DNA of 32,000 nucleotides. Source: Lachnospiraceae bacterium (GTDB lineage Bacteria; Bacillota; Clostridia; Lachnospirales; Lachnospiraceae). The position numbers were made by a program, and so were the translations under genes. Positions 6,012 through 24,104 of this stretch are shown here, piece after piece; the stretch's first letter is position 1, and every line of letters begins with the position of its first letter. The notes beneath the pieces were generated by a model. That model was given only the letters and a program-made list of their open reading frames with translations, was not told the DNA's origin and did no database searches. Location: assembly GCA_036652735.1 (NCBI GenBank), contig JAVVVI010000001.1:96998-128997 (forward strand), read 5' to 3'.

Positions 6012-7169
6012 CTACTCAATTAAGAACTGTGCCAACACATAATTGCTAATATCTCTTCCATATTCTGTGAAGCAGATTCCTTCTTCTGATACCTGTAACA
6101 GGTTATTTTTCTGTAACTGCTCCACCACTTTTCCATATCTGTCTTCTATACTTTCTGAAAACTCCTTGAAAAAATCTTCTTTTTTTATTCCCTGTGTCAT
6201 ACGAAGCCCAAGGAAAAAAAATTCCTCCATTTGTGATTCCTTTGATAATTCTTCTATTTTTGTGATTGTCTCACCGGTTAAATAAGACTTCATATCCTCT
6301 GTATTTTTCCATCTTCTATTGCAAAATAAAGATGCTGCCCCAAGGCCAAAACCAAGATAATTCTCTCTTCTCCAATATCCTATATTATGTCTGCATTCAT
6401 ATCCCTGCTTTGCATAATTTGAAATCTCATAGCGTCGGTAGCCCTGCTTGTTTAGTTTCTCTTCTGTCTGCTCATACATCAGTCTCTCCGTATCCTCATC
6501 CGGAAGTCTCTTTGGTGTTCCTCCCCGGCTTCGAATCCGATCATCCTCCCGATACTTTTCGTAAAAGGGCGTATGTTCTTCAATAATAAGACTGTATGCG
6601 GATATATGCTCCGGCTGCAGCTCCAGGACACATTCAAGTGTCTCACAATAACTAGAAAGAGTCTGACCCGGAAGTGCTGACATTAAATCAACATTAATAT
6701 TTGAGAATCCGGCTGCTCTTGCTTGTTTATAAGAGATCAAAAATTCTTCATAGGTGTGAATCCGTCCCAATTCTTTTAATTCCCTGTTTTTTGCCGATTG
6801 AAGTCCAAAACTGATACGGTTTATTCCAATCTTCCTATATTGTTCCAGGGCTTCCGGTGTAGTTGTCCCCGGATTGCATTCAATGGAGATCTCTGCCTCC
6901 GGCAGAATGGAAAAATTATTTGCCACTGCCCGGACAATGTCCTGTATCCATTCCGGTTTTAAAATAGATGGCGTTCCCCCTCCCATAAAAATTGTGGTCA
7001 CATTGGAAATCTGCTGCCGGTATGGATGATTTTCAATCTCCTGAATCAAGGCCTGTACATACTGTTCCTGAAGAGGTAGGCCTGCTGTTTGAGAAAGAAA
7101 ATCACAATATTCACATTTTCTTTTACAAAATGGAATATGAATATACAACTGTGTGGTTACCTGCTTCAT
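6012..7169 (-). CDS. hemW: Radical SAM protein HemW (HemN-like, heme chaperone / coproporphyrinogen oxidase family)
   Basis: CKRKCEYCDF is a CxxxCxxC radical-SAM cluster motif near the N-terminus. Length is 385 aa. It occupies the classical position directly after lepA. Its ATG overlaps the lepA TAA by 1 nt (TAATG). Confidence 0.85.
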   Translation of the reverse strand: MKQVTTQLYIHIPFCKRKCEYCDFLSQTAGLPLQEQYVQALIQEIENHPYRQQISNVTTIFMGGGTPSILKPEWIQDIVRAVANNFSILPEAEISIECNPGTTTPEALEQYRKIGINRISFGLQSAKNRELKELGRIHTYEEFLISYKQARAAGFSNINVDLMSALPGQTLSSYCETLECVLELQPEHISAYSLIIEEHTPFYEKYREDDRIRSRGGTPKRLPDEDTERLMYEQTEEKLNKQGYRRYEISNYAKQGYECRHNIGYWRRENYLGFGLGAASLFCNRRWKNTEDMKSYLTGETITKIEELSKESQMEEFFFLGLRMTQGIKKEDFFKEFSESIEDRYGKVVEQLQKNNLLQVSEEGICFTEYGRDISNYVLAQFLIE

Positions 7170-8980
7170 TATTCATCATCCAGCTTCAATACGCTCATAA
7201 AGGCTTTCTGTGGAATCTCTACATTACCAATTTGGCGCATCCGCTTCTTTCCTTCTTTCTGTTTTTCCAATAACTTGTGTTTTCTGGAAATATCCCCTCC
7301 ATAACATTTTGCCAGTACATCCTTACGCATGGCCTTTATTGTCTCACGGGCGATGATTTTCCCACCAATTGCTGCCTGAATGGGGATCTCAAATAAATGC
7401 CGTGGAATCTCATCTTTTAATTTTTCACACATCCGTCTGCCTCTCTCATATGCAGTTGCTTCATGTACAATAAAAGAGAGTGCATCCACTTCTTCATGAT
7501 TTACCAGAATATCAAGTTTTACCAGTTCCGAGCGCTCATATCCCTTCAGTTCATAATCAAACGAAGCATATCCTTTTGATCTGGATTTCAGTGCATCAAA
7601 AAAATCATATATAATCTCATTTAAAGGCAATTCATATTTAATCACTGCCCTGGTAGCTTCTATATATTCCATGGAAAGATATACTCCTCGTCTTTCCTGG
7701 CATAAATCCATAATCGATCCAATAAATTCACTGGTCACCATGATTTCAGCACTTACAATCGGTTCTTCCATATAATCAATCTCCGCAGGATTGGGAAGAT
7801 TGGAAGGATTTGTCAGTTCAATCATATCCCCATTTAACTTATATACCTTGTAGATTACCCCGGGTGCGGTTGTTACCAAATCCAAATTATATTCCCGTTC
7901 CAATCGTTCCTGAATCACTTCAAGATGAAGCAGACCCAAGAATCCACAACGGTAACCAAAGCCCAATGCCAGGGACGTCTCCGGTTCAAATTGCAAGGAG
8001 GCATCATTTAACTGTAATCTATCCAATGCATCTCTCAAATCGGGATACTTTGCGCTGTCTGCCGGATACATACCGCAATAAACCATTGGGTTAACCTTTT
8101 TATAACCCGGCAATGGTTTTTCACAGGGATTGCTGTTATCCGTTAGGGTGTCACCTACACTGGTGTCCTTCACATTTTTCAGACTTGCGGTAACATAGCC
8201 CACCATTCCGGCGCTTAATTCCTGGCAGGGAAGAAATCTTCCTGCCCCAAAATAACCCACTTCCACTACATCGGCAACTGCGCCGGTAGCCATCATGCGC
8301 ATCTTTGTTCCAATCTTGATTGTACCTTCCATAATACGGACAAATACAATTACCCCCTTATACGAATCGTAAAGAGAGTCAAACACCAATGCAGACAAAG
8401 GTGCTGCTGGGTCTCCCTTTGGTGGTGGTATTTTAACGATAATCTGTTCCAGAACCTCTTCTATATTCAGCCCAGTCTTTGCTGAGATCTTTGGTGCATC
8501 CTGTGCTTCAATCCCAATAATATCTTCAATCTCTTCGATCACTCGTTCCGGATCTGCACTGGGCAAATCAATTTTATTAATTACCGGCATAACATCCAGG
8601 TTGTGATCCATTGCCAGATACACGTTCGCCAATGTCTGTGCTTCCACACCCTGTGCCGCATCTACCACCAGAATTGCACCATCACAAGCTGCAAGACTTC
8701 TGGATACTTCATAATTAAAATCCACATGTCCGGGAGTATCAATTAGATTCAAAATATACTCCTCTCCATTTTTCGCCTTATAAACGGTACGGACCGCCTG
8801 GGATTTAATGGTAATTCCTCTCTCTCGTTCCAAATCCATGTTATCCAGTATCTGCGCCTGCATCTCCCTGCTGGTTAAAAGACCGGTCCGTTCAATAATA
8901 CGGTCCGCTAAAGTAGACTTGCCATGGTCAATGTGCGCTATAATACAAAAATTCCTAATTTTACTCTGGTCTGTTGTCAT
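7169..8980 (-). CDS. lepA: Translation elongation factor 4 (LepA)
   Basis: GTPase motifs [18 protein letters not shown] and NKID are present. I moved the start from 8998 to the ATG at 8980 ([11 protein letters not shown]), preceded by GGAGGAATATT. Confidence 0.95.
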
Positions 8981-9012
8981 AATATTCCTCCAAATCACTT
9001 CGATACAAAAGA

Positions 9013-11614: not shown

Positions 11615-11660
11615 ATAACAGGCATAGAATTTTTATCTTTCTATGCCTGTTATTCATTTT
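11615..11660 (+). terminator. Intrinsic terminator after the reductase fusion gene, overlapping the spoIIP stop codon
   Basis: A perfect 15-bp stem, ATAACAGGCATAGAA (11615-11629) with TTCTATGCCTGTTAT (11639-11653), encloses a 9-nt loop and is followed by TCATTTT. The spoIIP stop (11650-11652) lies inside the 3' arm. Confidence 0.6.
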
Positions 11661-12876
11661 GTGATGTCAGAACTTTATTTAACAGGTCCGCTAAAGGCTC
11701 CATGGCATTCCCTGCTTCCTCATCGGTATTGGTCTGTGCCCCAACTTCAATTAAAAGTGTCCTGGGTTTTAAATGCATATTGTAACGATATCCTTTTAGA
11801 TAAATTGGCCTTGTAAAACCCGGATAATAGGTGGCTGCCGCAATTTGCATCTGCAGTGAAAATGCAAGATTATCCTGTAAATTTGGATTTTTCAAATATG
11901 TAATTTCACCATTTGCGGTTGTGCGACTGAGGCCATTAAAAAACATAATTTTTGCGGTCTTTTTTCCATTAATTTTTTTAATCAAATGTGCATCTTCCTT
12001 CACTGCATCCCGATGCATGTCAATTACAACCTTAATGGAGGGATGGTCTGAAAGAATTTTTTCAATTGCAGGCAATGCTTCCGAATAAGCTGCATCCCGG
12101 CTTTTCACATCATATTCACCCAAGTGATGCAATACCTCAAATCCATACTTTTCTTCTAACAGCTGATCCAGATATTGGGCTATATCCACTACTGATTTCT
12201 GCTTTTCACCCTTTTTGGAACTTATATATTTTTCCTGGGAATGTGTATGATAAATTAAAATCTGGGGTCCCTTCCCATTTTTTTTAATGGTAAGATCTTT
12301 CTTTAATAATTTTTCTGCATTGAGCTGGCTTCCTTTAATTGTTGTGGTTCGATCAATCACATAGAAGTTCTGCCGCAAATAATCAAAGTCATTTAGCTTT
12401 TCCAATGACACCGCCTTAGCCTCGTCCTCTTTTAAGTTACCAGTGGAATCGGTCTCTTTTTCATCCTCCTCCACTACCTCCTGTGCTACAATATCTCCCG
12501 TTCTATCATCCACATAATTCTCATCTGCTGCCTCACTGGCAACTATGGCTTCGTAGGAAATTGCACTTTCCACTTTGGTCTCATAGTGTGGTTTTGTACT
12601 CTCATAAGCATAAATAGGAAAATATCGTACCACTTTACTCACGAATACATCCCAGAGGGAATCTTCTCCGGGGGGTGAGACTGAAAAGGTCAACACCGGA
12701 GAATGGAGTTTTATCATGCGGTTACCCATGTCATTTACCGTCTGTTCCAAACACTGCTGTGCAAATGAGGATGTTTTTCCTCCACGTTTTCCAATGGCAA
12801 AAAAAGCTGCCATACAAATCAATACACAAGTCAGAATAATTCTTGCTATTTTTACAATTTTCTTTCTGTAGTTCAC
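11650..12876 (-). CDS. spoIIP: Stage II sporulation protein P (SpoIIP, cell-wall hydrolase)
   Basis: N-terminal TM segment ARIILTCVLICMAAFFAI, an acidic linker, and a C-terminal SpoIIP-type domain with ILIYHTHSQEKY. The start is uncertain. The longest ORF starts at the GTG at 12912. I prefer the GTG at 12876 (VNYRKKIV), preceded by AAAGGGTGG plus 6 nt. Confidence 0.8.
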   Translation of the reverse strand: MNYRKKIVKIARIILTCVLICMAAFFAIGKRGGKTSSFAQQCLEQTVNDMGNRMIKLHSPVLTFSVSPPGEDSLWDVFVSKVVRYFPIYAYESTKPHYETKVESAISYEAIVASEAADENYVDDRTGDIVAQEVVEEDEKETDSTGNLKEDEAKAVSLEKLNDFDYLRQNFYVIDRTTTIKGSQLNAEKLLKKDLTIKKNGKGPQILIYHTHSQEKYISSKKGEKQKSVVDIAQYLDQLLEEKYGFEVLHHLGEYDVKSRDAAYSEALPAIEKILSDHPSIKVVIDMHRDAVKEDAHLIKKINGKKTAKIMFFNGLSRTTANGEITYLKNPNLQDNLAFSLQMQIAAATYYPGFTRPIYLKGYRYNMHLKPRTLLIEVGAQTNTDEEAGNAMEPLADLLNKVLTSQNE

Positions 12877-12917
12877 CCATTGCCACCCTTTCACCAAAAG
12901 ACATACATCCACAGATA

Positions 12918-12957: not shown

Positions 12958-13692
12958 TTATTCTTTTCTATGTGTAAAATATCTGGCTGCTTCCTCTGCC
13001 TGGGCAGTCAGCATTTTAATACCACCAGAACATCGAATTCCCAGTTCTTCTGCCTGTGCTAAAAGCTTTGTTTTTTCCGGATTGTAGATTACATCAAAGA
13101 CCCCTTCGCAGTCCGGAAATTGCGTAAGATCTATGGGCCGTTGTTCTACGTTTGGATACATTCCAACCGGAGTTGTATTAATAATCACCTGAATCCTGTC
13201 CACTCTGTGTAAGTCAGCATAATTTACCCTTATGACCGGATTATTTTCCTGGAATTCCTGCTCCCTTCGGGAAGCAATTACAATTTTGGCTGCTCCCATC
13301 TGCTTCACAGCCCAGGTCACGGTCTTACTGGTTGCTCCATCTCCCAAAATAAGGACTGTTTTAGTTTCAACAACGATGCCTGCTTCTTTCATTGCGTAAC
13401 AAAATCCATAGTAATCTGTATTTGTTCCACAAAGTTTTCTCTGGGCATTAAAATATAAGGTATTTACAGCCCCTATTTGTTTTGCAATGGGTGCTAAATA
13501 GTCACAATAGGGCATTACGGTCTGTTTGTATGGAATGGTAACATTTAAACCCAGGAAATTTCTGGTCTCCAATAGTTCCACTAACTCTTCTTTGGAAACC
13601 GGATACAGTTCATATTGATAGAATCCCAGGCTCTCATGTATTTCCTTGGAATAACTATGGCCCAGTTTTTCCCCAACTAATCCATATTGCAT
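12958..13692 (-). CDS. aroE: Shikimate dehydrogenase (short form, 244 aa)
   Basis: LGHSYSKEIH, NVTIPYK and NTDYYG motifs are present. Its ATG overlaps the end of the chorismate mutase ORF by 16 nt. Confidence 0.85.
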   Translation of the reverse strand: MQYGLVGEKLGHSYSKEIHESLGFYQYELYPVSKEELVELLETRNFLGLNVTIPYKQTVMPYCDYLAPIAKQIGAVNTLYFNAQRKLCGTNTDYYGFCYAMKEAGIVVETKTVLILGDGATSKTVTWAVKQMGAAKIVIASRREQEFQENNPVIRVNYADLHRVDRIQVIINTTPVGMYPNVEQRPIDLTQFPDCEGVFDVIYNPEKTKLLAQAEELGIRCSGGIKMLTAQAEEAARYFTHRKE

Positions 13693-13964
13693 GATTCTTC
13701 TCCTTCTATCAACTCCCTTTGATACGCTCTGCTCACTTGAAACATGGTACCATATAGTGTTCGAATATAGGGCTCCATAAGTGGACCCACCTGTTCAGAC
13801 AGCTTTTGCAGAATTTCTTCCTCTCTTTGTGCATTTAAAACGATCGTTTTAGAAGCTTTCTTTTCTTCTGCTACCTGTTTGGATAACTTCATTCGTTGAA
13901 GGAATAAAGCAGCTATTTCCTCATCTATTTTATCGATTTCAATTCTTATGTTCTCTAATGACAT
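13677..13964 (-). CDS. Chorismate mutase, AroQ class (95 aa, stand-alone)
   Basis: MSLENIRIEIDKIDEEIAALFLQRMKLSKQVAEEKK is the typical AroQ helical N-terminus. AGGAG lies 6 nt upstream. It overlaps the aroC end by 26 nt and the aroE start by 16 nt. Confidence 0.8.
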   Translation of the reverse strand: MSLENIRIEIDKIDEEIAALFLQRMKLSKQVAEEKKASKTIVLNAQREEEILQKLSEQVGPLMEPYIRTLYGTMFQVSRAYQRELIEGEESCNMD

Positions 13965-15063
13965 CTTCTTCTCCTAATTCCAGCATGGTATCTAAAATAC
14001 CCAGTGCCATGGCGGCTTCCACTACTGGGACTGCCCGAACCACCACACAGGGATCATGTCTGCCAACAATACTCAGCTTCGTATTTTCTCCCCGGCTTAA
14101 AGATACCGAGTCCTGTTCCTTTGCTATGGATGGTGTGGGTTTCATTCCAAGACGGCAGATAATGGGCATTCCGGATGAAATTCCACCTAATATTCCTCCA
14201 TGGTGATTGGTTCTTGTTTTAACCTGATTTCCGTCCATATAAAATGCATCGTTATTCTCAGAACCTTTCCTGGCAGAAGAGGCAAATCCTGTGCCGAACT
14301 CAACTCCTTTTACTGCCGGAATCCCAAAGAAAATCGGAGACAAGATGCTTTCTAGTCCATCATACATAGGACCGCCAATTCCCGGTTTCACTCCAATTGC
14401 CACACACTCTATGATTCCGCCAATGGAATCTCCCTGTGACCGGACTTCGGTTATATACTTCCCCATCTCCGCTCCCTTTTCTTCATCCAGTACAGGAAAG
14501 GAACGTGTCTTCAAATCATTTAGTTGTGTCAAGTCTTCTATTCCCTCTGAGAATCCTCTGTCAAAAATAGAACCAATGGCATAAATATGTGCTCCAATAT
14601 GAATATTTTCTTTTTCCAATATTTGAAGTGCAATGGCCCCTGCAATACAAAGAGGTGCCGTCATTCTTCCTGAAAAAGGACCGCCGCCGCTGATATTCAC
14701 ACTGCCCTTATACTTTACCATTGCCGTATAATCTCCATGTCCGGGACGTGGAACATCACAAACAGATTCATAATCCTTGGAATGGATATTGGTATTTTTA
14801 ATTATAATGGTCAATGGTTCCTTTGTTGTTTTACCATCAATAAGACCACTTCGAACCAAAGGCAGGTCCGGTTCTTTTCGTGAGGTTGCATAAATACTGT
14901 TCCCGGGTGCTCTCCGATTTAGTAATTCCTGCATTTTATCAAAATCAATCCATTGTCCAATGGGCAGACCTGTAATCGTTACCCCTATTTCTTCTTCGTG
15001 AGAACCTCCAAATATGGTTACCTTTAAGTGTCTGCCAAAGGTAGAAGAACATTTAATACTCAT
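13939..15063 (-). CDS. aroC: Chorismate synthase
   Basis: GRHDPCVVVRAVPVVEA plus general AroC layout. I moved the start from the GTG at 15072 to the ATG at 15063, preceded by GGGAGGTG plus 6 nt. It overlaps the aroA end by 11 nt. Confidence 0.92.
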   Translation of the reverse strand: MSIKCSSTFGRHLKVTIFGGSHEEEIGVTITGLPIGQWIDFDKMQELLNRRAPGNSIYATSRKEPDLPLVRSGLIDGKTTKEPLTIIIKNTNIHSKDYESVCDVPRPGHGDYTAMVKYKGSVNISGGGPFSGRMTAPLCIAGAIALQILEKENIHIGAHIYAIGSIFDRGFSEGIEDLTQLNDLKTRSFPVLDEEKGAEMGKYITEVRSQGDSIGGIIECVAIGVKPGIGGPMYDGLESILSPIFFGIPAVKGVEFGTGFASSARKGSENNDAFYMDGNQVKTRTNHHGGILGGISSGMPIICRLGMKPTPSIAKEQDSVSLSRGENTKLSIVGRHDPCVVVRAVPVVEAAMALGILDTMLELGEEDVIREHKN

Positions 15064-16267
15064 ACCATTCACCTCCCAGTTGTTTATAATCCATAAAAAA
15101 ATCAGGATAAGATTTTGCCACAGCTTCTGCTCCTACAATGTATACCGGTTCCCTGCATAAACTTGATGCAATGGCTGCCGCCATTACAATCCGATGGTCA
15201 TTCTGACTACACACGGTTCCACCGGTCAGCCCACCCTTGCCATCTATGGTAAGGCCTTCCTGTTCTTCTATAATTCTTCCCCCAAGTGCTTCTATCATAT
15301 CATGAACTGCCACTAACCGGTCACTCTCTTTGATTCGAAGTCTTGCGGCATTGATAATCCTGGTTCTGCCTTTTCGGGATGCTGCCAGTACCGAAAGAAT
15401 CGGCACCAAATCCGGAATATCGGTTACATCTATCACCCAATCTTCCCGGCTGTGGTTCTCTTCTAATTCTTTTAACTCTTCAATGAGCCTAAGAATTGCC
15501 TTGTCCCCCTGCATGGACTGTACATTCAGATTCTTACAGTTAATCTGCTGCTCAGAACCGGTGATTTTTTCCGCTATCCTGTCTGCTGCAATCCAGAATG
15601 CACTGTTTGACCAATCCCCTTCTGCCTCCACCTCACCCGGCGACCGATAGCTCTGCCCACCCTTTATGATGAATGTATGAAACGGAGTTCTTTGCACTTC
15701 TATCTGAATTCCAAACTGCTGCAATACCTCCAGTGTTAGTTCCACATACCCGATGGATTCTAAATTGGATGTTAGTTCTATCCTGCTCTCCTGTTCCAAC
15801 AGAGGCAGTGCAAACAAAAGACCTGTTATATACTGAGAGCTTACATTTCCTGCCAAAGAAAATATTCCGCCCTGAAGTTTTCCCGACACACGAATAATCA
15901 GTCCTGCTTCCTGTGAAGTTTGAAAACTGCAGCCATGTGCCTCCATCTCCTCTTTTAAGGGTGACAAGGGACGTTGGGGAAGGCGTCCATTTCCATAAAA
16001 TTCCGCCTGTTCTGTCAAAGCCATTACAATGGGCAGAAAAAAACGCAGCGTCGATCCACTTTCTCCACATGGATAGTTCCCACTCCCATTTTTCAGGGCC
16101 CGAATGCAGTTCTCGGTTGCCTTTAAATCGTCATTCCAGTCATGGATGGTCACCCTGCATGGCTCCTTACATAACGCTGCTGCAATTAATAACCGGTGGG
16201 CGTGAGATTTTGATGTAATGGCATTCAAGCTTCCCTTTAAAGGTCCTGGTATTATTTTTATATTCAT
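15053..16267 (-). CDS. aroA: 3-phosphoshikimate 1-carboxyvinyltransferase (EPSP synthase)
   Basis: MNIKIIPGPLKGSLNAITSKSHAHRLLIAAAL start and DHRIVMAAAIA motif. I moved the start from 16309 to the ATG at 16267, preceded by GAGGAGGGG. Confidence 0.92.
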   Translation of the reverse strand: MNIKIIPGPLKGSLNAITSKSHAHRLLIAAALCKEPCRVTIHDWNDDLKATENCIRALKNGSGNYPCGESGSTLRFFLPIVMALTEQAEFYGNGRLPQRPLSPLKEEMEAHGCSFQTSQEAGLIIRVSGKLQGGIFSLAGNVSSQYITGLLFALPLLEQESRIELTSNLESIGYVELTLEVLQQFGIQIEVQRTPFHTFIIKGGQSYRSPGEVEAEGDWSNSAFWIAADRIAEKITGSEQQINCKNLNVQSMQGDKAILRLIEELKELEENHSREDWVIDVTDIPDLVPILSVLAASRKGRTRIINAARLRIKESDRLVAVHDMIEALGGRIIEEQEGLTIDGKGGLTGGTVCSQNDHRIVMAAAIASSLCREPVYIVGAEAVAKSYPDFFMDYKQLGGEWYEY

Positions 16268-16280
16268 AGAACCCCTCCTC

Positions 16281-17357
16281 TTAGAATGCATGTTCAATAA
16301 AATGTTCAAGCTCTGATATGGGTAGTTCCTTTAGATAACAGGCACCCATTTTCTTTGGTACTACAAGGGTAATCCTATCACCCTGTCTTTTTTTATCCTT
16401 CCATGCAACCTCTGCAAGCTGTTTGGATGAAAAGTTACACTCCAATGGAAACTTGAACTTTAACAAAATGCGCTTAAGGTCTTCGGAACAATCCTCTTGT
16501 GAATACCCCAATTGATACGATGCGCGGGAGACTATATACATTCCAATTGCAACTGCATGACCATGCGTCACTTGATAATTACTGCATTTTTCAATGGCAT
16601 GCCCTATTGTATGTCCAAAGTTCAATAGCTGGCGCTTGCCGGTATCCCTCTGGTCCAAACCAACAATCTCTGCCTTTATTGTAATACATCTTAAGACAAT
16701 TTTCTCTAAAATGTCTCCCTGGTGGGTTGTACCATATAACGCTTCCCCATACTGCTCCATTTGTTCCAATAGTTCCAGATCCTGAATGGCACCATACTTA
16801 ATCACTTCTGCTACTCCATCCAAAAAAATAGTATAAGGAAGTGTCTTCATGGTATCACAATCGCAAAGAACCAGAGACGGCTGCCAGAATGCTCCTGCCA
16901 GATTTTTCCCCCCTTCCAGATTCACACCTGTTTTTCCACCTACAGAGGAATCCACTGCTGCCAGAAACGTAGTTGGAATCTGTACATAAGGGATTCCTCT
17001 TAGGAAAATTGACGCTGCAAATCCTGCAATATCTCCTGCAATTCCACCACCCAATGCAACAATACTGTCACTTCTTGTAAAATTATGGTCCGCCATAAGT
17101 TCTAAAATGGCTTTTACTGTGTCGATTTTCTTTGCATTTTCCCCTTTTGGGAATACGTAGCTTATCGTTTGAAACCCTTCCTGTTCCAGTGATGCAACCA
17201 CTTGTGAGGCATAAAGCTTTTCTACTACCGAGTCGGTTACCAGACAGATTTTACCCGGTGAAAGAACTGTTTTTATATACTTCCCTGCTTCTTGAACAAT
17301 ACCTCGTTTTAAGATCACCTCATATTTTTTTCCCGTTGGAACCGTCACTTTTTCCAT
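16281..17357 (-). CDS. aroB: 3-dehydroquinate synthase
   Basis: GGGIAGDIAGFAA nucleotide-binding motif and metal-binding histidines in FGHTIGHAIE...HGHAVAIG. Its ATG overlaps the tyrA TAA by 1 nt (TAATG). Confidence 0.92.
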   Translation of the reverse strand: MEKVTVPTGKKYEVILKRGIVQEAGKYIKTVLSPGKICLVTDSVVEKLYASQVVASLEQEGFQTISYVFPKGENAKKIDTVKAILELMADHNFTRSDSIVALGGGIAGDIAGFAASIFLRGIPYVQIPTTFLAAVDSSVGGKTGVNLEGGKNLAGAFWQPSLVLCDCDTMKTLPYTIFLDGVAEVIKYGAIQDLELLEQMEQYGEALYGTTHQGDILEKIVLRCITIKAEIVGLDQRDTGKRQLLNFGHTIGHAIEKCSNYQVTHGHAVAIGMYIVSRASYQLGYSQEDCSEDLKRILLKFKFPLECNFSSKQLAEVAWKDKKRQGDRITLVVPKKMGACYLKELPISELEHFIEHAF

Positions 17358-18199
17358 TAAAATTTTTCTCCATCTATGGTCATTTTTCTTTCTTTACCTT
17401 CTCTTAAAAGCGTACAAAGTGTCTCTTTGTCCTGTGTCTGAATTGCTTGCTTATATTCTTCTAGATGTTGAATTAATTCCTCTATTTCTTCGGATAAGAA
17501 CTGTGGATTGCATAAGAATAACTCCGTCCACATATCTTCTTTTAATTTTGCAACACGAGTCATATCTTTATAACTTCCTGCGGAGAATCCCTGATGCTGC
17601 AATGCTGTCTCACTCTTTATATAGGCTCCTGAAACCACATGTGCCAGTTGAGAGGTGAACGCAATCATACGGTCATGTTCTTCCGGTGTTGTAATTACAA
17701 TATCCTGAAAACCAATGCTGAGAAATAATTGTTTCATTTGCTGAACGGCTTCAATCTGTGTTCCTTTTGCCGGTGTCAATATCATGGATGCATGCTGGAA
17801 TAATGCCTTCTTTGCATGATTGAATCCGGAATGTGCCGCTCCTGCCATAGGATGTCCGCCCATAAATAAAAATCCCTGTTCTTTTGCAATTGGCTCCAAT
17901 TCAGCGCAGATCACACGTTTCACTCCACAACAGTCCAGTACCACTCCGCCTTTTCTGATTTGCTCCCTGTGCTGTTTCACAAAATCAATGGTTGCCTGTG
18001 GATAGAGTGCAAGAATTAATAATTCACACTCCGGTAATTCTTCTGCCTTTAACTCCTCATCAATGGCTCCTGTTACAATCGCTTTTTTTACAATTGAATC
18101 TTCAATATCCAGTCCCAGAATTTGATGTTCGGTATTTTCCTTGAATGTTTTAGCCATGGAACCGCCAATCAGACCAAGTCCGATAATTCCTATCTTCAT
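17357..18199 (-). CDS. tyrA: Prephenate dehydrogenase
   Basis: MKIGIIGLGLIGGS Rossmann start and GGHPMAG motif. Its ATG abuts the aroF stop (TAAATG). Confidence 0.88.
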   Translation of the reverse strand: MKIGIIGLGLIGGSMAKTFKENTEHQILGLDIEDSIVKKAIVTGAIDEELKAEELPECELLILALYPQATIDFVKQHREQIRKGGVVLDCCGVKRVICAELEPIAKEQGFLFMGGHPMAGAAHSGFNHAKKALFQHASMILTPAKGTQIEAVQQMKQLFLSIGFQDIVITTPEEHDRMIAFTSQLAHVVSGAYIKSETALQHQGFSAGSYKDMTRVAKLKEDMWTELFLCNPQFLSEEIEELIQHLEEYKQAIQTQDKETLCTLLREGKERKMTIDGEKF

Positions 18200-19213
18200 T
18201 TATTTATCCCCCTTGTAACTAAATGGCAGAATTGCGTCAACCGCCTTTACCACATCCGAAAATGCTTCCGGTGTCAAGGACTGTGCTCCATCACACAATG
18301 CATGTGGGGGGTCATTATGCACTTCAATCATCAATCCATCTGCTCCACAAGCTGCTGCTGCCAGTGACATTGGCTTTACTAATTTTGCAATTCCGGTTGC
18401 ATGGCTTGGATCTACTATAATTGGAAGATGTGTCATTGATTTCAACAAAGGTATACTGGCTAAATCCAGTGTGTTTCTTGTTGCCGTCTCAAAGGTTCGG
18501 ATTCCTCTCTCACAAAGAATTACATTTTCATTTCCACCAGCCATAATATATTCTGCGCTCATTAAAAATTCCTGTAGGGTACTGGAAAGTCCCCTCTTTA
18601 AGAGAATTGGTTTTTTTAGGGTTCCCAGTTCCTTTAGTAACTCAAAGTTCTGCATATTTCTGGCTCCTACCTGAATCACATCAACCTCTTCGAACAATGG
18701 CAGATGTGAAAGGTCCATAATCTCCGTTACAATTGGTAAACCGGATACTTTTTTTGCCTCTAATAAAAGCTTGATTCCCTCTTCCCTCATACCCTGGAAT
18801 GCATATGGTGACGTACGCGGTTTAAAGGCTCCGCCTCTGCACAAAGAAGCTCCTGCCTCTTTTACCGCTACTGCAACCTGGCAGATTTGTTCTTTTGATT
18901 CAACAGAGCAGGGTCCTGCAATAATCTGAAAGGTTCCTCCCCCTATCTGAATGCCGCCCACATCTACTACGGTATCATCCGGGTGAAATTTTCTGTTTGC
19001 ATTTTTATATGGCTCTTGGATTCTTTTTACAGTATCTACAATATCCAGTGCGTTAATTAGTTCCATGTCTACTCCTGTGGTATCTCCAACTAATCCAATT
19101 AAGGTTGTGTGTTCCCCCTTACTCATATGAATTCCTAAATCCATACTTTTTAACCAGGATAATAAGTTGTCCAGTTGCTTTTGATCCGGATTGTTCTTTA
19201 AAATAATAACCAT
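18200..19213 (-). CDS. aroF: 3-deoxy-7-phosphoheptulonate (DAHP) synthase, type I-beta, with an extra N-terminal domain of about 70 aa
   Basis: The catalytic barrel includes GADGLMIEVHNDPPHALCDGAQSL. The N-terminal MVIILKNNPDQKQLDNLLSWLKSMDLGIHMSKGEHTTLIGLVGD resembles the ferredoxin-like regulatory domain of Thermotoga-type enzymes. I moved the start from 19270 to the ATG at 19213, preceded by AAGGAGGAG. Confidence 0.9.
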   Translation of the reverse strand: MVIILKNNPDQKQLDNLLSWLKSMDLGIHMSKGEHTTLIGLVGDTTGVDMELINALDIVDTVKRIQEPYKNANRKFHPDDTVVDVGGIQIGGGTFQIIAGPCSVESKEQICQVAVAVKEAGASLCRGGAFKPRTSPYAFQGMREEGIKLLLEAKKVSGLPIVTEIMDLSHLPLFEEVDVIQVGARNMQNFELLKELGTLKKPILLKRGLSSTLQEFLMSAEYIMAGGNENVILCERGIRTFETATRNTLDLASIPLLKSMTHLPIIVDPSHATGIAKLVKPMSLAAAACGADGLMIEVHNDPPHALCDGAQSLTPEAFSDVVKAVDAILPFSYKGDK

Positions 19214-19244
19214 TTTGTTCTCCTCCTTGGGTTTTCCTTTAATT

Positions 19245-19281
19245 ACAAAAAGTCCGTAGGTGAATTTCACCTGCGGACTCT
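19245..19281 (-). terminator. Intrinsic terminator (attenuator) 31 nt upstream of the aroF start
   Basis: In the minus-strand RNA, AGUCCGCAGGUGA (19279-19267) pairs with UCACCUACGGACU (19263-19251). That gives 12 bp plus one C/A mismatch around loop AAU, followed by UUUUGU (19250-19245). Confidence 0.7.
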
Positions 19282-19318
19282 AACGATTGTGCTTGTTATC
19301 TTTCATAAAGAGTATCCT

Positions 19319-19435
19319 TTATGAAGGGAGAGTATCCATATTTGCAGTGAAATCCAAAGAAGCCTTACTTCTATAATAATAGAATGTAAAGCTATAATAT
19401 AAATATTCTACTGCTGACTTCATTGTCTTATTCAT
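19319..19435 (-). CDS. Leader peptide of the aro operon (38 codons, Tyr/Phe-rich)
   Basis: AAGGAG (19448-19443), 7 nt, then ATG (19435). The translation is MNKTMKSAVEYLYYSFTFYYYRSKASLDFTANMDTLPS, ending at TAA (19321-19319). It contains six Tyr and three Phe codons, eight of them in codons 11-21. It is too short for the supplied ORF track. Confidence 0.6.
   Translation of the reverse strand: MNKTMKSAVEYLYYSFTFYYYRSKASLDFTANMDTLPS
19329..19355 (-). promoter_or_regulatory. Candidate antiterminator segment, complementary to the 5' arm and loop of the attenuator terminator
   Basis: GGAUUUCAC (19355-19347) pairs with GUGAAAUUC (19270-19262). UGC (19346-19344) pairs with GCA (19274-19272) if G19271 bulges out. 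ACUCU (19333-19329) pairs with AGAGU (19281-19277). The segment lies within codons 27-36 of the leader ORF. Confidence 0.45.
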
Positions 19436-19492
19436 AATCTCTCTCCTTAAGTAACTGCATCACTGCCTTATTATGACGGTAATAAAGCAATT

Positions 19493-19756
19493 TTATGCCA
19501 TTGCATTAACAGCTTTTGTTAAACGGGAAATCTTTCTTGCTGAAGTATTCTTGTGATAAACACCCTTTTTAGTTGCTTTGTCTATTTCAGAAGTAGCTAC
19601 AAGTAAAGCAGCTTTTGCTGTCTCAACTTCTTTTGCTACGATGGCAGCTTCAACTTTTTTAATTGATGTTTTTACTTTTGATTTGGTTGCTTTATTTCTT
19701 GCAGCCTTTTCATCATTTACTCTAATTCTCTTTTTTGCAGATTTTATGTTAGCCAA
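19493..19756 (-). CDS. rpsT: 30S ribosomal protein S20
   Basis: (M)ANIKSAKKRIRVNDEKAARNKATKSKV. I moved the start from 19819 to the TTG at 19756, preceded by GGAGGTG plus 6 nt. The product is 87 aa, the normal S20 size. Confidence 0.92.
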   Translation of the reverse strand: MANIKSAKKRIRVNDEKAARNKATKSKVKTSIKKVEAAIVAKEVETAKAALLVATSEIDKATKKGVYHKNTSARKISRLTKAVNAMA

Positions 19757-19847
19757 TCCGTACACCTCCATATGATAAAATATTAATTGTTCCTCAACTG
19801 TTACATTAAAGCCGGACACGGACGATCTAATGTAAACATACTATATC

Positions 19848-19876
19848 AGTTTATGCCATTGAGTTTCTCTTGTCAA
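19848..19876 (-). promoter_or_regulatory. Candidate sigma-A promoter for rpsT
   Basis: On the minus strand: perfect TTGACA (19876-19871), a 17-nt spacer, then TAAACT (19853-19848). This predicts a 5' UTR of about 85 nt. Confidence 0.55.
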
Positions 19877-19935: not shown

Positions 19936-20829
19936 ATGCGTAATTTTACAATTCGTACTGATTTGGCACTTGAGACCCGTGAAGTCTTTGAAGATGATGA
20001 TCCTGAAATAAGTGGCGTATTATTAGAAGAGATTCTGCTTAATAACGGCGAAATCAAAAAAACAACAGTTTGTATCGAAACTGAAAATGGATCCCGTGCC
20101 ATGGGCAAACCCAAAGGCACTTATATTACATTGGAAGCTCCCGCACTGCTTGAACCGGATGATAACTACCACCGTGAAATATCCATGGCACTTTCTGATG
20201 TTCTTAAAGCTCTGGCTCCCAAACAGGAAAGTTCTATTCTGGTTGTAGGACTTGGCAACCGTAATATCACTCCGGATGCCCTTGGTCCGCAAACCATTGA
20301 TCATTTAATGATTACCAGACATATTGCCAGAGAATTTGGTAAGGATGTATTGGGAACAGACTGCCATCACGTTATTAGTGGTCTAATCCCGGGTGTAATG
20401 GCTTCCACCGGAATGGAAACCTCTGAAATTATCCGAGGTGTGGTTGCTGAAACACACCCTGCCCTGGTAATTGTAATCGATGCACTTGCAGCTCGCAGTA
20501 TTAAGCGTCTGAATCGAACCATACAAATCTCTGACACAGGCATTCATCCGGGCTCCGGTGTTGGTAATCACCGGAATGCAATCAATCACCTGACTTTAGG
20601 CGTACCCGTCATCTGTATTGGAATTCCCACTGTTGTGGACGCCGCCACCATTGTGTGTGATTCTCTAACCGACTCCGGCGTTGGTGATCTCTGTGACCGT
20701 GTACTGACTCCCGGATTAAATACCCTGTTTGTTACCCCCAAAAATGTGGATGAATCCATTGACCGCCTAAGTTTTACCTTATCCGAAGGTATTAATTTAG
20801 CCTTCAGTGCTGCTGTATTTCACAATTAA
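19936..20829 (+). CDS. gpr: Germination protease (GPR endopeptidase)
   Basis: MRNFTIRTDLALE start and GLGNRNITPDALGP motif. SD is GAGGAAAG. The gene is divergent from rpsT. Confidence 0.88.
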   Translation: MRNFTIRTDLALETREVFEDDDPEISGVLLEEILLNNGEIKKTTVCIETENGSRAMGKPKGTYITLEAPALLEPDDNYHREISMALSDVLKALAPKQESSILVVGLGNRNITPDALGPQTIDHLMITRHIAREFGKDVLGTDCHHVISGLIPGVMASTGMETSEIIRGVVAETHPALVIVIDALAARSIKRLNRTIQISDTGIHPGSGVGNHRNAINHLTLGVPVICIGIPTVVDAATIVCDSLTDSGVGDLCDRVLTPGLNTLFVTPKNVDESIDRLSFTLSEGINLAFSAAVFHN

Positions 20830-21807
20830 TAACTCCACACCCAATTGTGCATCCATTCTTCCTGATTTTGCATCTTCTTCCGTCTGAATACCGTCTTTTA
20901 ATTCCTGTAACAATTCCTCTTTTGAAAATTGACGGGTCTGCGCCAGATTTTGCCTCACCGCAAAATCCCGCATACCCATTTTTTCTGCAATGATGTTCCC
21001 GGGTGTCCCTGCTGCAGCTAATTCCTTCATCTGCAATAGGATATTAAACTGGCGGTTAATCATATAGAGAATCTGAAATGGGGTATTTTTTAACGCCAAT
21101 AAATCATAATACAGGTTTAATGCTCGTTTCTGTTTTTTTTCTCCAATTGAACGAACCATTTCAAATATTTTATCTGTGATCTGTGTAATACAAATTTCCT
21201 CTATATCTGCTGCGGTGATCTCTTCCCGTTCCCATGCATAACAGATCAGCTTCTCAACTTCCTTTTCCAGCGTTTCCATATCTCCACCACATTTATCCAC
21301 AAGCAGGTGAAATACGCCGGGTGTAATTGCCTTGTGAACCCCACGGAGTTTTCCGCGAACCCATCGATATAAGGTTTCCTCTGTCTGAGGCAGGAACTCT
21401 ATCACACTCCCTGCCTTTGCTGCTGCTTTGTAAAGTTTGCTGCGCTTATCAATTTCATCTTCCACAAAAATAAAACAGGTTGTTGCTGCCACCTCACCAA
21501 GATATTGCGCAAGTTCTTCACATGAGTTTTTAAAGAACTCACTTTTTTCTACAAGAATCAATCGACGCTCTGCAAAGAACGGCAGCGTCTCTGACAAGTC
21601 TATTAGTTCCCGTGGATTCACCGATTTTCCATAAAAATATGTGACATTCATGGAATCGCCCGGATTGGAAAATGCCTGTATCAATTTGTCCCGGTACTGT
21701 TTTCTAAGGTATACTTCTTCTCCAAACAACAGGTACATTCCTTTGCACTGTTTTTGTTTTATGTCCTCGTCTATTTTAATATATTGGGAACGATCTGTTT
21801 CCTTCAT
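20797..21807 (-). CDS. holA: DNA polymerase III delta subunit
   Basis: The size, the YLLFGEEVYL N-terminal motif and the position right after comEC all fit HolA. The start is ambiguous: TTG at 21822, GTG at 21819 or ATG at 21807. I chose the ATG, which has GGTGA 8 nt upstream. Confidence 0.85.
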   Translation of the reverse strand: MKETDRSQYIKIDEDIKQKQCKGMYLLFGEEVYLRKQYRDKLIQAFSNPGDSMNVTYFYGKSVNPRELIDLSETLPFFAERRLILVEKSEFFKNSCEELAQYLGEVAATTCFIFVEDEIDKRSKLYKAAAKAGSVIEFLPQTEETLYRWVRGKLRGVHKAITPGVFHLLVDKCGGDMETLEKEVEKLICYAWEREEITAADIEEICITQITDKIFEMVRSIGEKKQKRALNLYYDLLALKNTPFQILYMINRQFNILLQMKELAAAGTPGNIIAEKMGMRDFAVRQNLAQTRQFSKEELLQELKDGIQTEEDAKSGRMDAQLGVELLIVKYSSTEG

Positions 21808-21863
21808 GAATTTATTCACCAACTTCTATTATTTTACCTACTATTTTTTATTGTAATGGTTTT

Positions 21864-24104
21864 TTAGGGATTTTTCAAGCTTTCTGCACAAAAGGTTTTT
21901 AGGGTTACATGGTCTTTTTTCATGGTGAGTGTAATTTGGCCCACTTGCTGGGTGTTATAAATTGCACTTTGAACCTCCTTTAATCGACGGATACATTCCT
22001 TAGACGGATGCCCGTATGAATTATCTCTTCCACTTGAAATTGCGCTAATTTGGGGCGATACAGCCTCTAAGAACGCCTCACAGCTGGATGTATTGGAACC
22101 ATGATGATTTACCTTGTATAGTGTTAGGGGCTCAATTTTATATTCTGCTATCCATTCTTTCTCCACTTGATCCGGAATATCCCCTCCAAATATACCGGAA
22201 AAGCCTTCCTTAACATTACGAATATAGAGGATTAGAGAACGTGCATTACGTTCTTCCTCCGGTTTGTTTCTAAGATTTGCACACTGTATCCATATACTCT
22301 CTGTGCTCAATACCTCTTCCGGTTTCATATATATAATTGGGATTCCTGCCTTTTTTGACATCTGAAGAAAGGAATCATAGGCCGAATCCTTTACAATATC
22401 CTTGCTCACAACCAAATGACCAATGGGATAACGCAATTCCAGAACATCTTTTAATCCGGACCAGTGATCTTCGTCTAAATGGGAGAGAAACCAATAATCT
22501 ATATTCCCAATTCCTTTCGACTTTAAAAAGGGCAGAATGCGGTATTCTCCAACTTTATCAATGTCCGTACTTCCTCCATCAATGAAGATCCGAACTTTTT
22601 CCTTGGTTGTAATGTAGATGCCATCCCCCTGCCCCACGTCCAGCATTGTTACGGTAAATGGTTCTCCTCTCCGAAACAAAAGTAACACGAACAGCATCGG
22701 AAGGAACCCCAGAATCCTTACTTGTTTTTTTCGGAATAAAAACAGGAATACTCCGGCTAACAGGGCATAGTATGCAATTAACACCCAGATTTCCGGCTTT
22801 CCACAGACGTAGGTACTCTTTCCCTTCCCAACCGCTTCTGTAAGCAGATTCACAGCCCTTAAAATCACATATTCCGGTTTCAATATATAAGAAGCAGCCA
22901 TGGGAAAATAGCAGCCTGCGACTCCTGCCACCAGTCCCAGAATCAAGATTATTCCCGTAAATGGAACAATGAGAAGATTCATAGGAATAACCCACAGCGG
23001 AAGCTCATAATAAAAATAGGCGGTCAACGGCAGGGTCATACTTTGAATTCCAATGCTTATAATGAGTGTTTTCCACAGCCAGTGCATTCTTTTATAATTT
23101 TCTTTCAGGTAAGCATTCATAATCAGCGTTCCTGCCACTGCTGCAAAGGAAAATAAAAATCCACCCTCAAACAATAAGTAAGGGTTCTCCAATAAGATTA
23201 ATGTTCCTGCCAGACTCATTGCACTGGGGGCATCATACGTTCTTCCAAGCCACTGTGCTATCATTAATAACCCAAACATAACTGCCGCGCGAAGTGTCCC
23301 TGCCGGTGTTCCAACCATAAGGACAAACAATCCAATCAAGGTAATGGACAACCCACCCGACAGGAAAAAGGACAGCCCCCGTTTCCGAACAAACTGATAC
23401 AATGCCATTCCCAGCACTGAAATATGTAATCCGGAAATCGCTAAAATATGGGATACTCCACAAACACGGAAATTCTGCTTTATCTTCGGCTCCAATGTTG
23501 ATTTGTTTGCAAGCAGCATCGTTTTAATAATTCCGGCTTCTTCTTTTGGGAGATTCTCCTGAAAAAAATCCGCTGTTCTCTGGCTGAGTTTATATAGCTT
23601 TTCTTTCATTTTCCAATAGAACGACAGGGTTTGATTTTTGCTCTTCATCGACACCACAAAAACACGGTAGCCATAGCCCCGCCTGTGATAATACGTTTCT
23701 TCGTTAAAATTGCCTTCATTTCTTTGAGACATAAAATAACTTACGGTTCCTTTGACATTAATGATTGTTCCAACCGAAGGTTTCCCATGGTCGGATATGA
23801 GAATAAGATTAGGGGAAAGATGTGTTTCCCCATTAATAAGAATCTGAACATGATCCAGATAGATGGCATAGGAATTTGTTTTCTTTTCTTTGTTCGTAAT
23901 TCTTCCTTCTAAGATAATGGAATCCTTATTCTCTAAATAAGGCTGATACTGTTGGCAAATCTTATCTTCGTCTAAAAAATGAGTCGCCTTTCCAATGAGT
24001 ATTCCCATTACCACAAGAAAAAAAATCACACAAAGTGGCCTCTTAATCTCCAGCTTTTTCCTCCTTCTCTTTCTTTTTAACAACAATATCCAAATTGCGT
24101 TCAT
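21864..24104 (-). CDS. comEC: DNA internalization competence protein ComEC/Rec2
   Basis: A polytopic membrane core is followed by a C-terminal metallo-beta-lactamase fold (MLDVGQGDGIYI, SHLDEDHWSG). The start is uncertain. The ATG at 24104 overlaps the upstream gene by 62 nt. Alternatives are CTG 24053, GTG 24029 and ATG 24008. Confidence 0.88.
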   Translation of the reverse strand: MNAIWILLLKRKRRRKKLEIKRPLCVIFFLVVMGILIGKATHFLDEDKICQQYQPYLENKDSIILEGRITNKEKKTNSYAIYLDHVQILINGETHLSPNLILISDHGKPSVGTIINVKGTVSYFMSQRNEGNFNEETYYHRRGYGYRVFVVSMKSKNQTLSFYWKMKEKLYKLSQRTADFFQENLPKEEAGIIKTMLLANKSTLEPKIKQNFRVCGVSHILAISGLHISVLGMALYQFVRKRGLSFFLSGGLSITLIGLFVLMVGTPAGTLRAAVMFGLLMIAQWLGRTYDAPSAMSLAGTLILLENPYLLFEGGFLFSFAAVAGTLIMNAYLKENYKRMHWLWKTLIISIGIQSMTLPLTAYFYYELPLWVIPMNLLIVPFTGIILILGLVAGVAGCYFPMAASYILKPEYVILRAVNLLTEAVGKGKSTYVCGKPEIWVLIAYYALLAGVFLFLFRKKQVRILGFLPMLFVLLLFRRGEPFTVTMLDVGQGDGIYITTKEKVRIFIDGGSTDIDKVGEYRILPFLKSKGIGNIDYWFLSHLDEDHWSGLKDVLELRYPIGHLVVSKDIVKDSAYDSFLQMSKKAGIPIIYMKPEEVLSTESIWIQCANLRNKPEEERNARSLILYIRNVKEGFSGIFGGDIPDQVEKEWIAEYKIEPLTLYKVNHHGSNTSSCEAFLEAVSPQISAISSGRDNSYGHPSKECIRRLKEVQSAIYNTQQVGQITLTMKKDHVTLKTFCAESLKNP

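Follow-up and report, generated by a model that had tools for sequence, protein, structure and literature searches.

A short open reading frame (sORF) dense in tyrosine and phenylalanine codons, followed by an intrinsic transcription terminator, stands in front of an aromatic amino acid operon on the minus strand of the 32,000-nucleotide stretch of Lachnospiraceae bacterium DNA analysed here (contig JAVVVI010000001.1, hereafter the window). We read this element, with a probability of roughly 85%, as a ribosome-mediated (leader-peptide) transcription attenuator that takes charged tRNA-Tyr and tRNA-Phe as its signals. It lies in the 279-nt gap (19214-19492) between rpsT and aroF. A first-pass annotation of the same DNA had recognized here the signature of trpL/pheL-type attenuation, and this proposal is supported by the conservation of the sORF and its terminator in relatives, by alternative RNA pairings that exclude one another and co-vary, and by the absence of a T-box.

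Re-reading and translation of the minus strand reproduced the leader ORF as it had been described, with an AAGGAG Shine-Dalgarno (SD) sequence (19448-19443), a 7-nt spacer and an ATG at 19435 opening a frame of 38 codons that is closed by a UAA stop at 19321-19319. Codons 11-21 (19405-19373) indeed comprise six Tyr and two Phe codons, with TAT used for all six Tyr residues and both TTT and TTC used for Phe. When the 300 nt upstream of aroF were shuffled 2000 times with preservation of dinucleotides, an sORF with at least 6 aromatic codons in 11 arose in 8 shuffles and the density of 8 in 11 in none of them; thus, the aromatic codon density does not simply follow from A/T richness, and chance is excluded as its source. 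The strong terminator reported after the ORF was likewise recovered, folding at -19.3 kcal/mol and ending ~30 nt before aroF, and NCBIfam profiles confirmed the order of the downstream genes, aroF-tyrA-aroB-aroA-aroC-chorismate mutase-aroE, with no pheA in the operon.

To follow the element in other genomes, loci were collected with the AroF protein, one genome per species, which gave 80 loci of 63-79% identity, 79 of them with enough upstream sequence; a metagenome scan was carried out independently. A conserved sORF was scored when at least 6 of 11 codons were aromatic within 300 nt of aroF. Such an sORF was present on the sense strand in 63/79 genome loci and on the antisense strand in one, compared with 3.0 expected from dinucleotide shuffles, and the metagenome loci gave 52/73 on the sense strand and none on the antisense strand. 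Neither scan yielded a relative closer than 79% AroF identity. The genome loci were mostly metagenome-assembled genomes (MAGs) titled Clostridia, Clostridiales, Oscillospiraceae, Acutalibacteraceae, Christensenellaceae, Anaerovoracaceae, Lachnospiraceae or Ruminococcus, with the cultured leader carriers Oscillibacter valericigenes Sjm18-20 (L077) and Angelakisella massiliensis (L008) among the named species. Judged by record titles, Lachnospiraceae are a minority of the relatives, in which Oscillospiraceae, Acutalibacteraceae, Christensenellaceae, Anaerovoracaceae and unclassified Clostridia prevail.

Typical leader peptides of the family read MNKFAFAAEYYFTFIFTFAYFSKGSLRLAAKGASC, MSTFTFAAEYRYFSFTYYFGKAYFGLAENECV and MKRNIFAAEYFYFYFINKS. 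In 70 sORF loci the length ranged from 14 to 47 codons (median 28), and the first aromatic codon had a median position of 10. The start codon was ATG in 68/70 and an SD core (4 nt, at -18 to -5) was present in 64/70, as against 14% of the other ATGs in the same regions, both counts being somewhat inflated by a choice of start that preferred ATG with an SD. A promoter of the type TTGACA-17-TATAAT (at least 10/12 matches) was found upstream of the sORF in 52/70 loci, typically ending ~30 nt before the ATG, which makes the sORF with its SD the first feature on the transcript. Between the sORF and aroF, ~68 loci carry a terminator hairpin of -14 to -28 kcal/mol with a U-tract, whose onset is a median 34 nt past the sORF stop. 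An aromatic-rich sORF and a terminator are thus kept, and sORF length and the non-aromatic residues drift between relatives, which is the pattern that the first-pass annotation had expected of a genuine leader. Two variants can be distinguished: a short form, in which the stop codon lies ahead of the pairing segment termed region 2 below, and a long form, including that of the window, in which region 2 lies inside the ORF.

Codon usage in the family leaders (TAT 126, TAC 156, TTT 277, TTC 63 and TGG 8) indicates, through its synonymous variation, that the run is kept as Tyr and Phe codons and not as a fixed nucleotide string, and the mere eight TGG codons argue against sensing of Trp. The composition of the run also follows the operon behind it. 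In 55/80 genome loci tyrA follows aroF, and the ratio Y/(Y+F) of the leader is 0.50 when tyrA follows (n=48) and 0.29 when aroB follows directly (n=9; Mann-Whitney p=1.4e-4, without phylogenetic correction). The window, with a ratio of 0.67, thereby agrees with the earlier suggestion that its Tyr bias matches the presence of tyrA.

Two loci from MAG bins labelled Thermoguttaceae and assigned to Planctomycetes (L075 and L079) have a leader of the same kind (MTSFTYYYNAKSYGFNYAFLFTG...) and a strong terminator before aroF, which suggests horizontal transfer or mis-binning for the Thermoguttaceae leaders. No such leader was found at the Spirochaetia, Treponema, Bacteroidaceae and Planctomycetaceae loci (L022, L024, L076, L068 and L053).

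The RNA of the window leader offers the alternative pairings that an attenuator requires (Table). Folding of the 279-nt gap gave -76.9 kcal/mol (z=-6.1), a structure in which region 1 (19414-19401) is paired with region 2 (19353-19344) around an internal hairpin and the terminator stands separately. This internal hairpin may serve as a pause hairpin or as a stabilizer of the 1:2 pairing. The terminator has the arms AGAGUCCGCAGGUGA/UCACCUACGGACUU followed by the U-tract UUUUUGU; a simple terminator scan missed it (19281-19245), probably owing to its C.A mismatch. Region 2, including GGAUACUCU (19337-19329), forms a duplex of -16.7 kcal/mol with the terminator 5' arm and loop (19281-19264) and is the best partner of that arm among all 32-nt windows of the leader. 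The 2:3 antiterminator and the 3:4 terminator are mutually exclusive, and an anti-antiterminator 1:2, in which region 1 overlaps the first Tyr codon, is present on the evidence of energetics and register, not of classic covariation.

Equilibrium folding with a ribosome mask kept the terminator in all states and was therefore uninformative; instead, the transcript was cut just before the terminator 3' arm and folded with the ribosome footprint masked. With the footprint on Y11-Y14, the minimum free energy (MFE) structure holds the 2:3 antiterminator. A transcript free of ribosomes, or one whose ribosome has reached the stop codon, keeps regions 1 and 2 paired and leaves region 3 available for the terminator. 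When the footprint covers F18-Y21, a 1:2 helix spanning the ribosome is nevertheless drawn by the program, a pairing that would be sterically impossible, region 1 abutting the trailing edge of the ribosome. In the MFE structure of the full leader, the leader SD (19443-19448) pairs with CUCUCCCUU (19324-19332), just before the stop codon, which could limit re-initiation on finished leader transcripts.

Homology of the window element to the family was examined with a covariance model, R1, for which 38 relatives but not the window supplied the sequences. R1 matched the window at 19325-19429(-) over the full length of the model (55.7 bits, E=4.8e-9), and it matched 36/80 metagenome loci, always on the aroF strand and just upstream of the gene. 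The shared nucleotide motifs are region 1, UUUGCAGCUGAAUA, read as F-A-A-E-Y; the internal hairpin, CUUUACC...GGUAAGG, read as S-F-T...G-K-A; region 2, GAUUUNNGCUGC, read as D-F-x-A; and region 3, the terminator 5' arm, CGCAGNNAAAUC. A second match in the window, 21822-21869(+) (15.4 bits, E=0.45), was judged to be due to chance; it falls in an A/T-rich stretch at the holA/comEC junction and extends over no part of the model but its unpaired centre.

Truncated-transcript folding was then applied to 68 loci as a measure of the stabilization that upstream partners confer on the terminator 5' arm. The mean stabilization was -8.7 kcal/mol with the ribosome stalled in the aromatic run, compared with -3.7 kcal/mol without a ribosome, -2.9 kcal/mol with the ribosome at the stop codon and -5.1 kcal/mol when the upstream segment was shuffled, and 44% of the loci had z < -1.64 where 5% were expected.

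Co-evolution of the pairing segments was assessed in 65 distinct loci by comparing cognate with non-cognate duplexes, register-free and with row and column centring; this form of test was chosen because helix 1:2 has a nearly invariant GCAGC/GCUGC core and bulges that displace its register from one subfamily to another. Cognate partners were favoured by -2.6 kcal/mol for the 2:3 antiterminator (p=7e-8) and by -2.5 kcal/mol for the 1:2 anti-antiterminator (p=8e-9). The 3:4 terminator, as positive control, gave -12.1 kcal/mol (p=1e-12), and the 1:3 combination, as negative control, -0.06 kcal/mol (p=0.30). The compensatory changes are explicit in the sequences (CAC/GUG, GGC/GCC, GUGC/GCAC and GCAC/GUGC): region 2 and region 3 read, respectively, UUUCACUGC and GCAG(G)UGAAA in the window and L013, GGUUGGGCUG and CAGCCUAAUC in L074, GUGUUUGGCUG and CAGCUGAACAC in L023, AAAUUUGUGCUGC and GCCGCACGAAUUU in L078, and GGUUGCACUG and CAGUGCAAGC in L029. 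The spacer between region 2 and the terminator varies from ~20 to 80 nt across the family.

Taken as an attenuator, the element would work as follows. The leader RNA would begin in or before the SD at 19448, here probably as the continuation of the rpsT transcript, and three pairings would compete in it: 1:2 (19414-19401 with 19355-19329), 2:3 (the latter segment with 19281-19264) and 3:4 (closed by 19264-19247, then the U-tract). If the sORF is translated as predicted, then with plentiful Tyr and Phe the ribosome would pass codons 11-21 and continue across region 2 as far as the stop codon (19321-19319), so that region 3 would not be held, the 3:4 terminator would form and transcription would end ~30 nt before aroF. 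If Tyr-tRNA or Phe-tRNA became scarce, the ribosome would be expected to stall on the Tyr/Phe run and cover region 1; region 2 would thus be freed to pair with region 3 once this is transcribed, no terminator would form and RNA polymerase would read through into aroF-tyrA-aroB-aroA-aroC-chorismate mutase-aroE. Were the leader not translated at all, 1:2 would form and termination would be the default.

Several results weigh against this reading. Translation, stalling and regulation are predicted here from sequence analysis. In equilibrium folding, the terminator is part of the MFE structure under every ribosome mask, and since it always wins at equilibrium, which is expected of a kinetic switch, the model depends on co-transcriptional kinetics. 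For the window taken singly, the 2:3 duplex is only modestly significant (-16.7 kcal/mol as against -12.1 +/- 2.2 kcal/mol in shuffled leaders, with 11/300 shuffles reaching it), and on the stabilization metric the window is no better than shuffles (z=-0.14). RNAalifold on a gappy MAFFT alignment gave no consensus structure, and column-wise covariation of helix 1:2 in the MAFFT alignment is weak, with 65% of cells paired compared with 63% in shuffles and 21/500 shuffles reaching the observed value; registers slid from the true one were clearly lower, with 30-49% of cells paired. The ATG and SD counts of the family are inflated to the extent mentioned above. The window leader lacks the promoter that its relatives have, and a weak promoter-like match (TTTATA-16-TATTAT, 9/12; 19376-19403, minus strand) falls inside its Tyr codons. 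This match is probably a by-product of the TAT codons; it may also mark a secondary transcript start, which would bypass region 1. Finally, in Bacillus subtilis transcription outruns translation (review PMC7858274), and if such runaway transcription were general in Firmicutes, it would disfavour an attenuation mechanism of this kind.

Other explanations have to be set against the same data. A ligand- or protein-binding RNA, either a Tyr/Phe riboswitch or the target of a TRAP-like protein reading UAY/UUY, might control the terminator, with the ORF being incidental. RNA or protein sensors are the usual arrangement for amino acid operons in Firmicutes, and both the strong structure of the leader (z=-6.1) and the motifs kept beyond the aromatic codons (UUUGCAGCUGAAUA, CUUUACC/GGUAAGG and GAUUUNNGCUGC) could be taken in this sense. 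The conserved nucleotides are, however, explained by the 1:2 and 2:3 pairings, and the run changes by synonymous and Tyr-to-Phe swaps while staying aromatic and in frame. In the family, moreover, an in-frame ATG with an SD is placed directly after the promoter, the sORF ranges over 14-47 aa and shares no complex fold, Rfam offers no matching family and no candidate binding protein is encoded nearby, all of which makes a binding RNA improbable. A diverged T-box or another tRNA-binding leader missed by the Rfam models deserves mention because T-boxes typically control such genes in Firmicutes and because diverged T-boxes of streptococci are reported to escape Rfam (PMC5314783). Against it stand the lack of any T-box match at E<=10 over 19150-19560 or at the gathering threshold in 20 related loci, an antiterminator with neither a UGGN bulge nor a T-box sequence, and folds that show no Stem I, specifier-loop or K-turn architecture and a translated-looking ORF in their place; we consider such a leader highly unlikely.

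The sORF might instead code for a small peptide with a function of its own, hydrophobic and aromatic and perhaps located in the membrane, with the terminator merely ending a small gene or rpsT. The leader peptides are hydrophobic and in some relatives the sORF has been called as a gene ('hypothetical protein'), but conservation is confined to the Tyr/Phe run and to residues encoded by the pairing segments, the length ranges over the 14-47 aa given above, and the Tyr:Phe ratio follows the content of the operon. In every locus that has the element, furthermore, the sORF lies directly in front of aroF and ahead of the terminator, in most of them behind a promoter, every R1 match is placed likewise, and no Pfam or NCBIfam family is matched, so that a peptide function is very improbable, if a shade less so than a diverged T-box. 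A chance ORF in an A/T-rich spacer before an ordinary rpsT terminator would fit the 41% G+C of the window, the likeness of TAT-rich runs to promoter DNA, the weak promoter-like match at 19403-19376 and the missing promoter of the window leader. It is refuted by the comparative data, with the element kept in more than 110 loci of other taxa that have no rpsT upstream and an R1 E-value of 4.8e-9, and by the failure of all 2000 shuffles to reach the aromatic density, and we assign it next to no probability.

Table. Features of the rpsT-aroF region and the aro operon in the window (coordinates of the 32,000-nucleotide stretch; pairings and energies as folded).
Feature	Coordinates	Strand	Basis or remark
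Shine-Dalgarno AAGGAG of leader ORF	19443..19448	-	7-nt spacer, then ATG 19435-19433
Leader ORF, 38 codons + stop, MNKTMKSAVEYLYYSFTFYYYRSKASLDFTANMDTLPS*	19319..19435	-	minus-strand reading and translation
Regulatory codon run, codons 11-21, Y-L-Y-Y-S-F-T-F-Y-Y-Y	19373..19405	-	6 Tyr + 2 Phe in 11
Region 1, GCAGUAGAAUAUUU, codons 8-12	19401..19414	-	pairs with region 2 (anti-antiterminator), duplex -9.9 kcal/mol
Internal hairpin GCUUUAC...GUAAGGC around second Tyr cluster	19362..19392	-	fold; family consensus CUUUACC/GGUAAGG
Region 2, GGAUUUCACUGC...GGAUACUCU	19329..19355	-	pairs with region 1 or with terminator 5' arm (antiterminator)
Hairpin CUUCAUAAAGGAUACUCUUUAUGAAAG, including leader stop UAA	19300..19326	-	fold
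Region 3, terminator 5' arm + loop, AGAGUCCGCAGGUGAAAU	19264..19281	-	sequence reading and fold
Region 4, pairs with region 3 (3:4 terminator)	19247..19264	-	then U-tract
Intrinsic terminator AGAGUCCGCAGGUGA-AAU-UCACCUACGGACUUUUUGU	19245..19281	-	-19.3 kcal/mol, one C.A mismatch
aroF, including own SD AAGGAGG (19228-19222), ATG 19213	18200..19228	-	NCBIfam
tyrA, aroB, aroA, aroC, chorismate mutase, aroE	12958..18199	-	NCBIfam
A/U-rich 12-bp hairpin right after rpsT stop, without U-tract	19462..19491	-	fold
rpsT, ribosomal protein S20, 87 aa	19493..19759	-	NCBIfam
Sigma70-like rpsT promoter TTGACA-17-TAAACT, 10/12 matches	19848..19876	-	only good promoter match upstream of leader

The source of the leader transcript distinguishes the window from its relatives. 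The rpsT stop and the leader SD are only 45 nt apart, and no sigma70-like promoter was found between rpsT and the sORF (19436-19492), where the best match scored 7/12. As the sole good promoter is that of rpsT (19876-19848), the leader RNA of this genome is probably a 3' extension of the rpsT mRNA. The hairpin right after rpsT (19462-19491), having no U-tract, is not a canonical terminator, and read-through from rpsT into the leader is therefore likely. In the Tyr/Phe-replete state, the attenuator terminator would then double as the rpsT terminator. In the 80 relatives rpsT never precedes aroF, so that the placement of the aro genes within the block comEC (21864-24104), holA (20797-21822), gpr (19936-20829, plus strand) and rpsT (19493-19759) on one side, and spoIIP (11650-12912), lepA (7169-8998) and hemW (6012-7169) on the other, looks lineage-specific; spoIIP comes directly after the operon (12958-19213). 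More tentatively, and with somewhat less than an even chance in our estimate, the element may represent a large uncatalogued family of Tyr/Phe attenuators that is the main transcriptional control of the shikimate/tyrosine operon across many clostridial families (among them Oscillospiraceae, Acutalibacteraceae, Christensenellaceae and Anaerovoracaceae), with a Tyr:Phe mix tuned to tyrA and, in this genome, loss of the promoter and fusion to rpsT, one terminator both ending the S20 mRNA and gating aro. If so, the breadth of the family would mean that translation stays level with transcription in these Firmicutes, in contrast to B. subtilis with its runaway transcription.

The product of aroF is a 3-deoxy-D-arabino-heptulosonate 7-phosphate (DAHP) synthase with an N-terminal ferredoxin-like domain. 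In the DAHP synthase of Thermotoga this domain mediates feedback inhibition by Tyr and Phe, and if it acts likewise here, enzyme activity and transcription would answer to the same two amino acids. The operon (12958-19213) contains no shikimate kinase, dehydroquinate dehydratase or prephenate dehydratase. Its aroE ORF encodes 244 aa, compared with profiles of 263-290 positions, and the alignment begins at about profile position 3-13. Upstream of rpsT, the 3' ends of gpr (plus strand) and holA (minus strand) overlap convergently, as ORFs, by 33 nt (20797-20829). Four public assemblies (GCA_036649395.1, GCA_036651795.1, GCA_036644075.1 and GCA_036647515.1; L161-L164) carry an AroF and a 279-nt leader identical to those of the window and differ from it at 3-13 positions over 4 kb; the leader ORF is called as a gene in none of them. 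Being of the same species and identical in the leader, they add nothing to the evidence for conservation.

In database searches, Rfam 15 at the gathering threshold returned no family in the whole window and no relevant one in 20 related loci. At E<=10 over 19150-19560 it returned no T-box (RF00230), Phe_leader, Trp_leader, His_leader, Leu_leader, Thr_leader or leu/phe leader; the earlier statement that the leader has no T-box thus stands. A match to AS-pc01 (E=0.085) was dismissed as weak and merely reflecting the two hairpins. None of six leader peptides matched any Pfam or NCBIfam family, and in protein collections the sORFs of relatives appear only unnamed or as 'hypothetical protein', the window sORF being absent there. 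The clostridial Tyr/Phe leader family is hence absent from Rfam 15, Pfam and NCBIfam. In the literature searched, no published clostridial Tyr/Phe leader of aroF was found, although an earlier mention may exist in the older FEMS papers of Panina and Vitreschak (2003, 2004).

Amino acid sensing in Firmicutes is usually attributed to T-boxes, riboswitches or RNA-binding proteins, and RNA polymerase outrunning the ribosome in B. subtilis has been suggested as one reason for this. The presence of the leader in more than 110 of ~150 sampled aroF loci, mostly titled Clostridia, indicates that translation-coupled transcription control is common in Clostridia, and the leader would constitute a natural reporter of transcription-translation coupling in gut anaerobes. 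It identifies a control point for engineering or modelling the aromatic amino acid output of gut Clostridia, and the family allows many small ORFs called 'hypothetical protein', and many gaps left blank ahead of aro operons, to be annotated. The mechanism itself is textbook; the advance lies in its distribution and cataloguing, a classical attenuator being found in a lineage and at a breadth uncatalogued so far. Family size, the bearing on transcription-translation coupling in Clostridia and the rpsT fusion will be of specialist interest.

Among known systems, pheL-pheA and trpL-trpEDCBA of Escherichia coli share with the clostridial leader an ORF with clustered end-product codons, four segments that pair as 1:2, 2:3 and 3:4, regulatory codons in or beside segment 1 and an intrinsic terminator immediately ahead of the first structural gene. 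The clostridial leader differs in having no sequence or structure homology to them (no Rfam match at E<=10), in reading Tyr and Phe and not Trp, in controlling the common shikimate pathway together with tyrA, and in its host, a clostridium and not a proteobacterium. The short form of the family resembles trpL in that the stop codon lies ahead of region 2, whereas in the long form of the window region 2 lies inside the ORF and would be covered directly by the finishing ribosome. T-box leaders of aromatic genes likewise sense tRNA charging and choose between terminator and antiterminator, but they bind uncharged tRNA directly and need no translation.

For aroF itself, two leaders have been described. 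In Corynebacterium glutamicum, attenuation was predicted from a leader peptide with Phe-Tyr-Phe (PMC4046766), which likewise places Tyr and Phe codons ahead of a gene for DAHP synthase; compared by description, this leader is actinobacterial and has three aromatic codons only, as opposed to 5-9 aromatic codons in 11 ahead of a whole aro operon in the clostridial family. The uORFC-13-1 motif was described from 24 sequences of Acholeplasma and environmental DNA, in which it precedes aroF, and comprises -35/-10 elements, a ribosome-binding site, a start codon, Phe codons and an adjacent intrinsic terminator, with a role of ribosome speed being proposed (Brewer et al. 2021, PMC8632094). All these qualitative features are present in the clostridial family, with the window lacking the promoter; the comparison is one of descriptions and not of alignments, and the description of uORFC-13-1 stresses a U-run coding for at least one Phe and mentions no Tyr run. 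In Clostridioides difficile 630, premature termination was mapped in the aroF 5' untranslated region (UTR) and left unexplained, with no known riboregulator (Fuchs et al. 2021, PMC8237595). That case, the one hint from outside at regulation of this kind, concerns the same gene and bacterial class as the window, with no mechanism or sORF reported, and a leader attenuator offers a testable account of it; the same authors argued that runaway transcription does not characterize C. difficile (PMC8237595).

Leader-peptide attenuation is also known elsewhere in the phylum, for his operons in the B. cereus group, C. difficile and Erysipelotrichales (PMC2965389, PMC9413887), for leu in Streptococcus and Lactococcus (PMC5314783) and for ilv in Listeria (PMC5864092). 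Thus, of the first-pass view that Firmicutes rely on T-box leaders or TRAP, the absence of a T-box from this leader holds good, but the implied novelty does not, since attenuation of this type had already been described both in Firmicutes and for aroF. The his, leu and ilv attenuators are ribosome-mediated and take the place of the usual T-box, as is proposed here; they differ in amino acid and operon, are unrelated in sequence and are mostly confined to narrow clades, whereas the clostridial Tyr/Phe leader spans many clostridial families.

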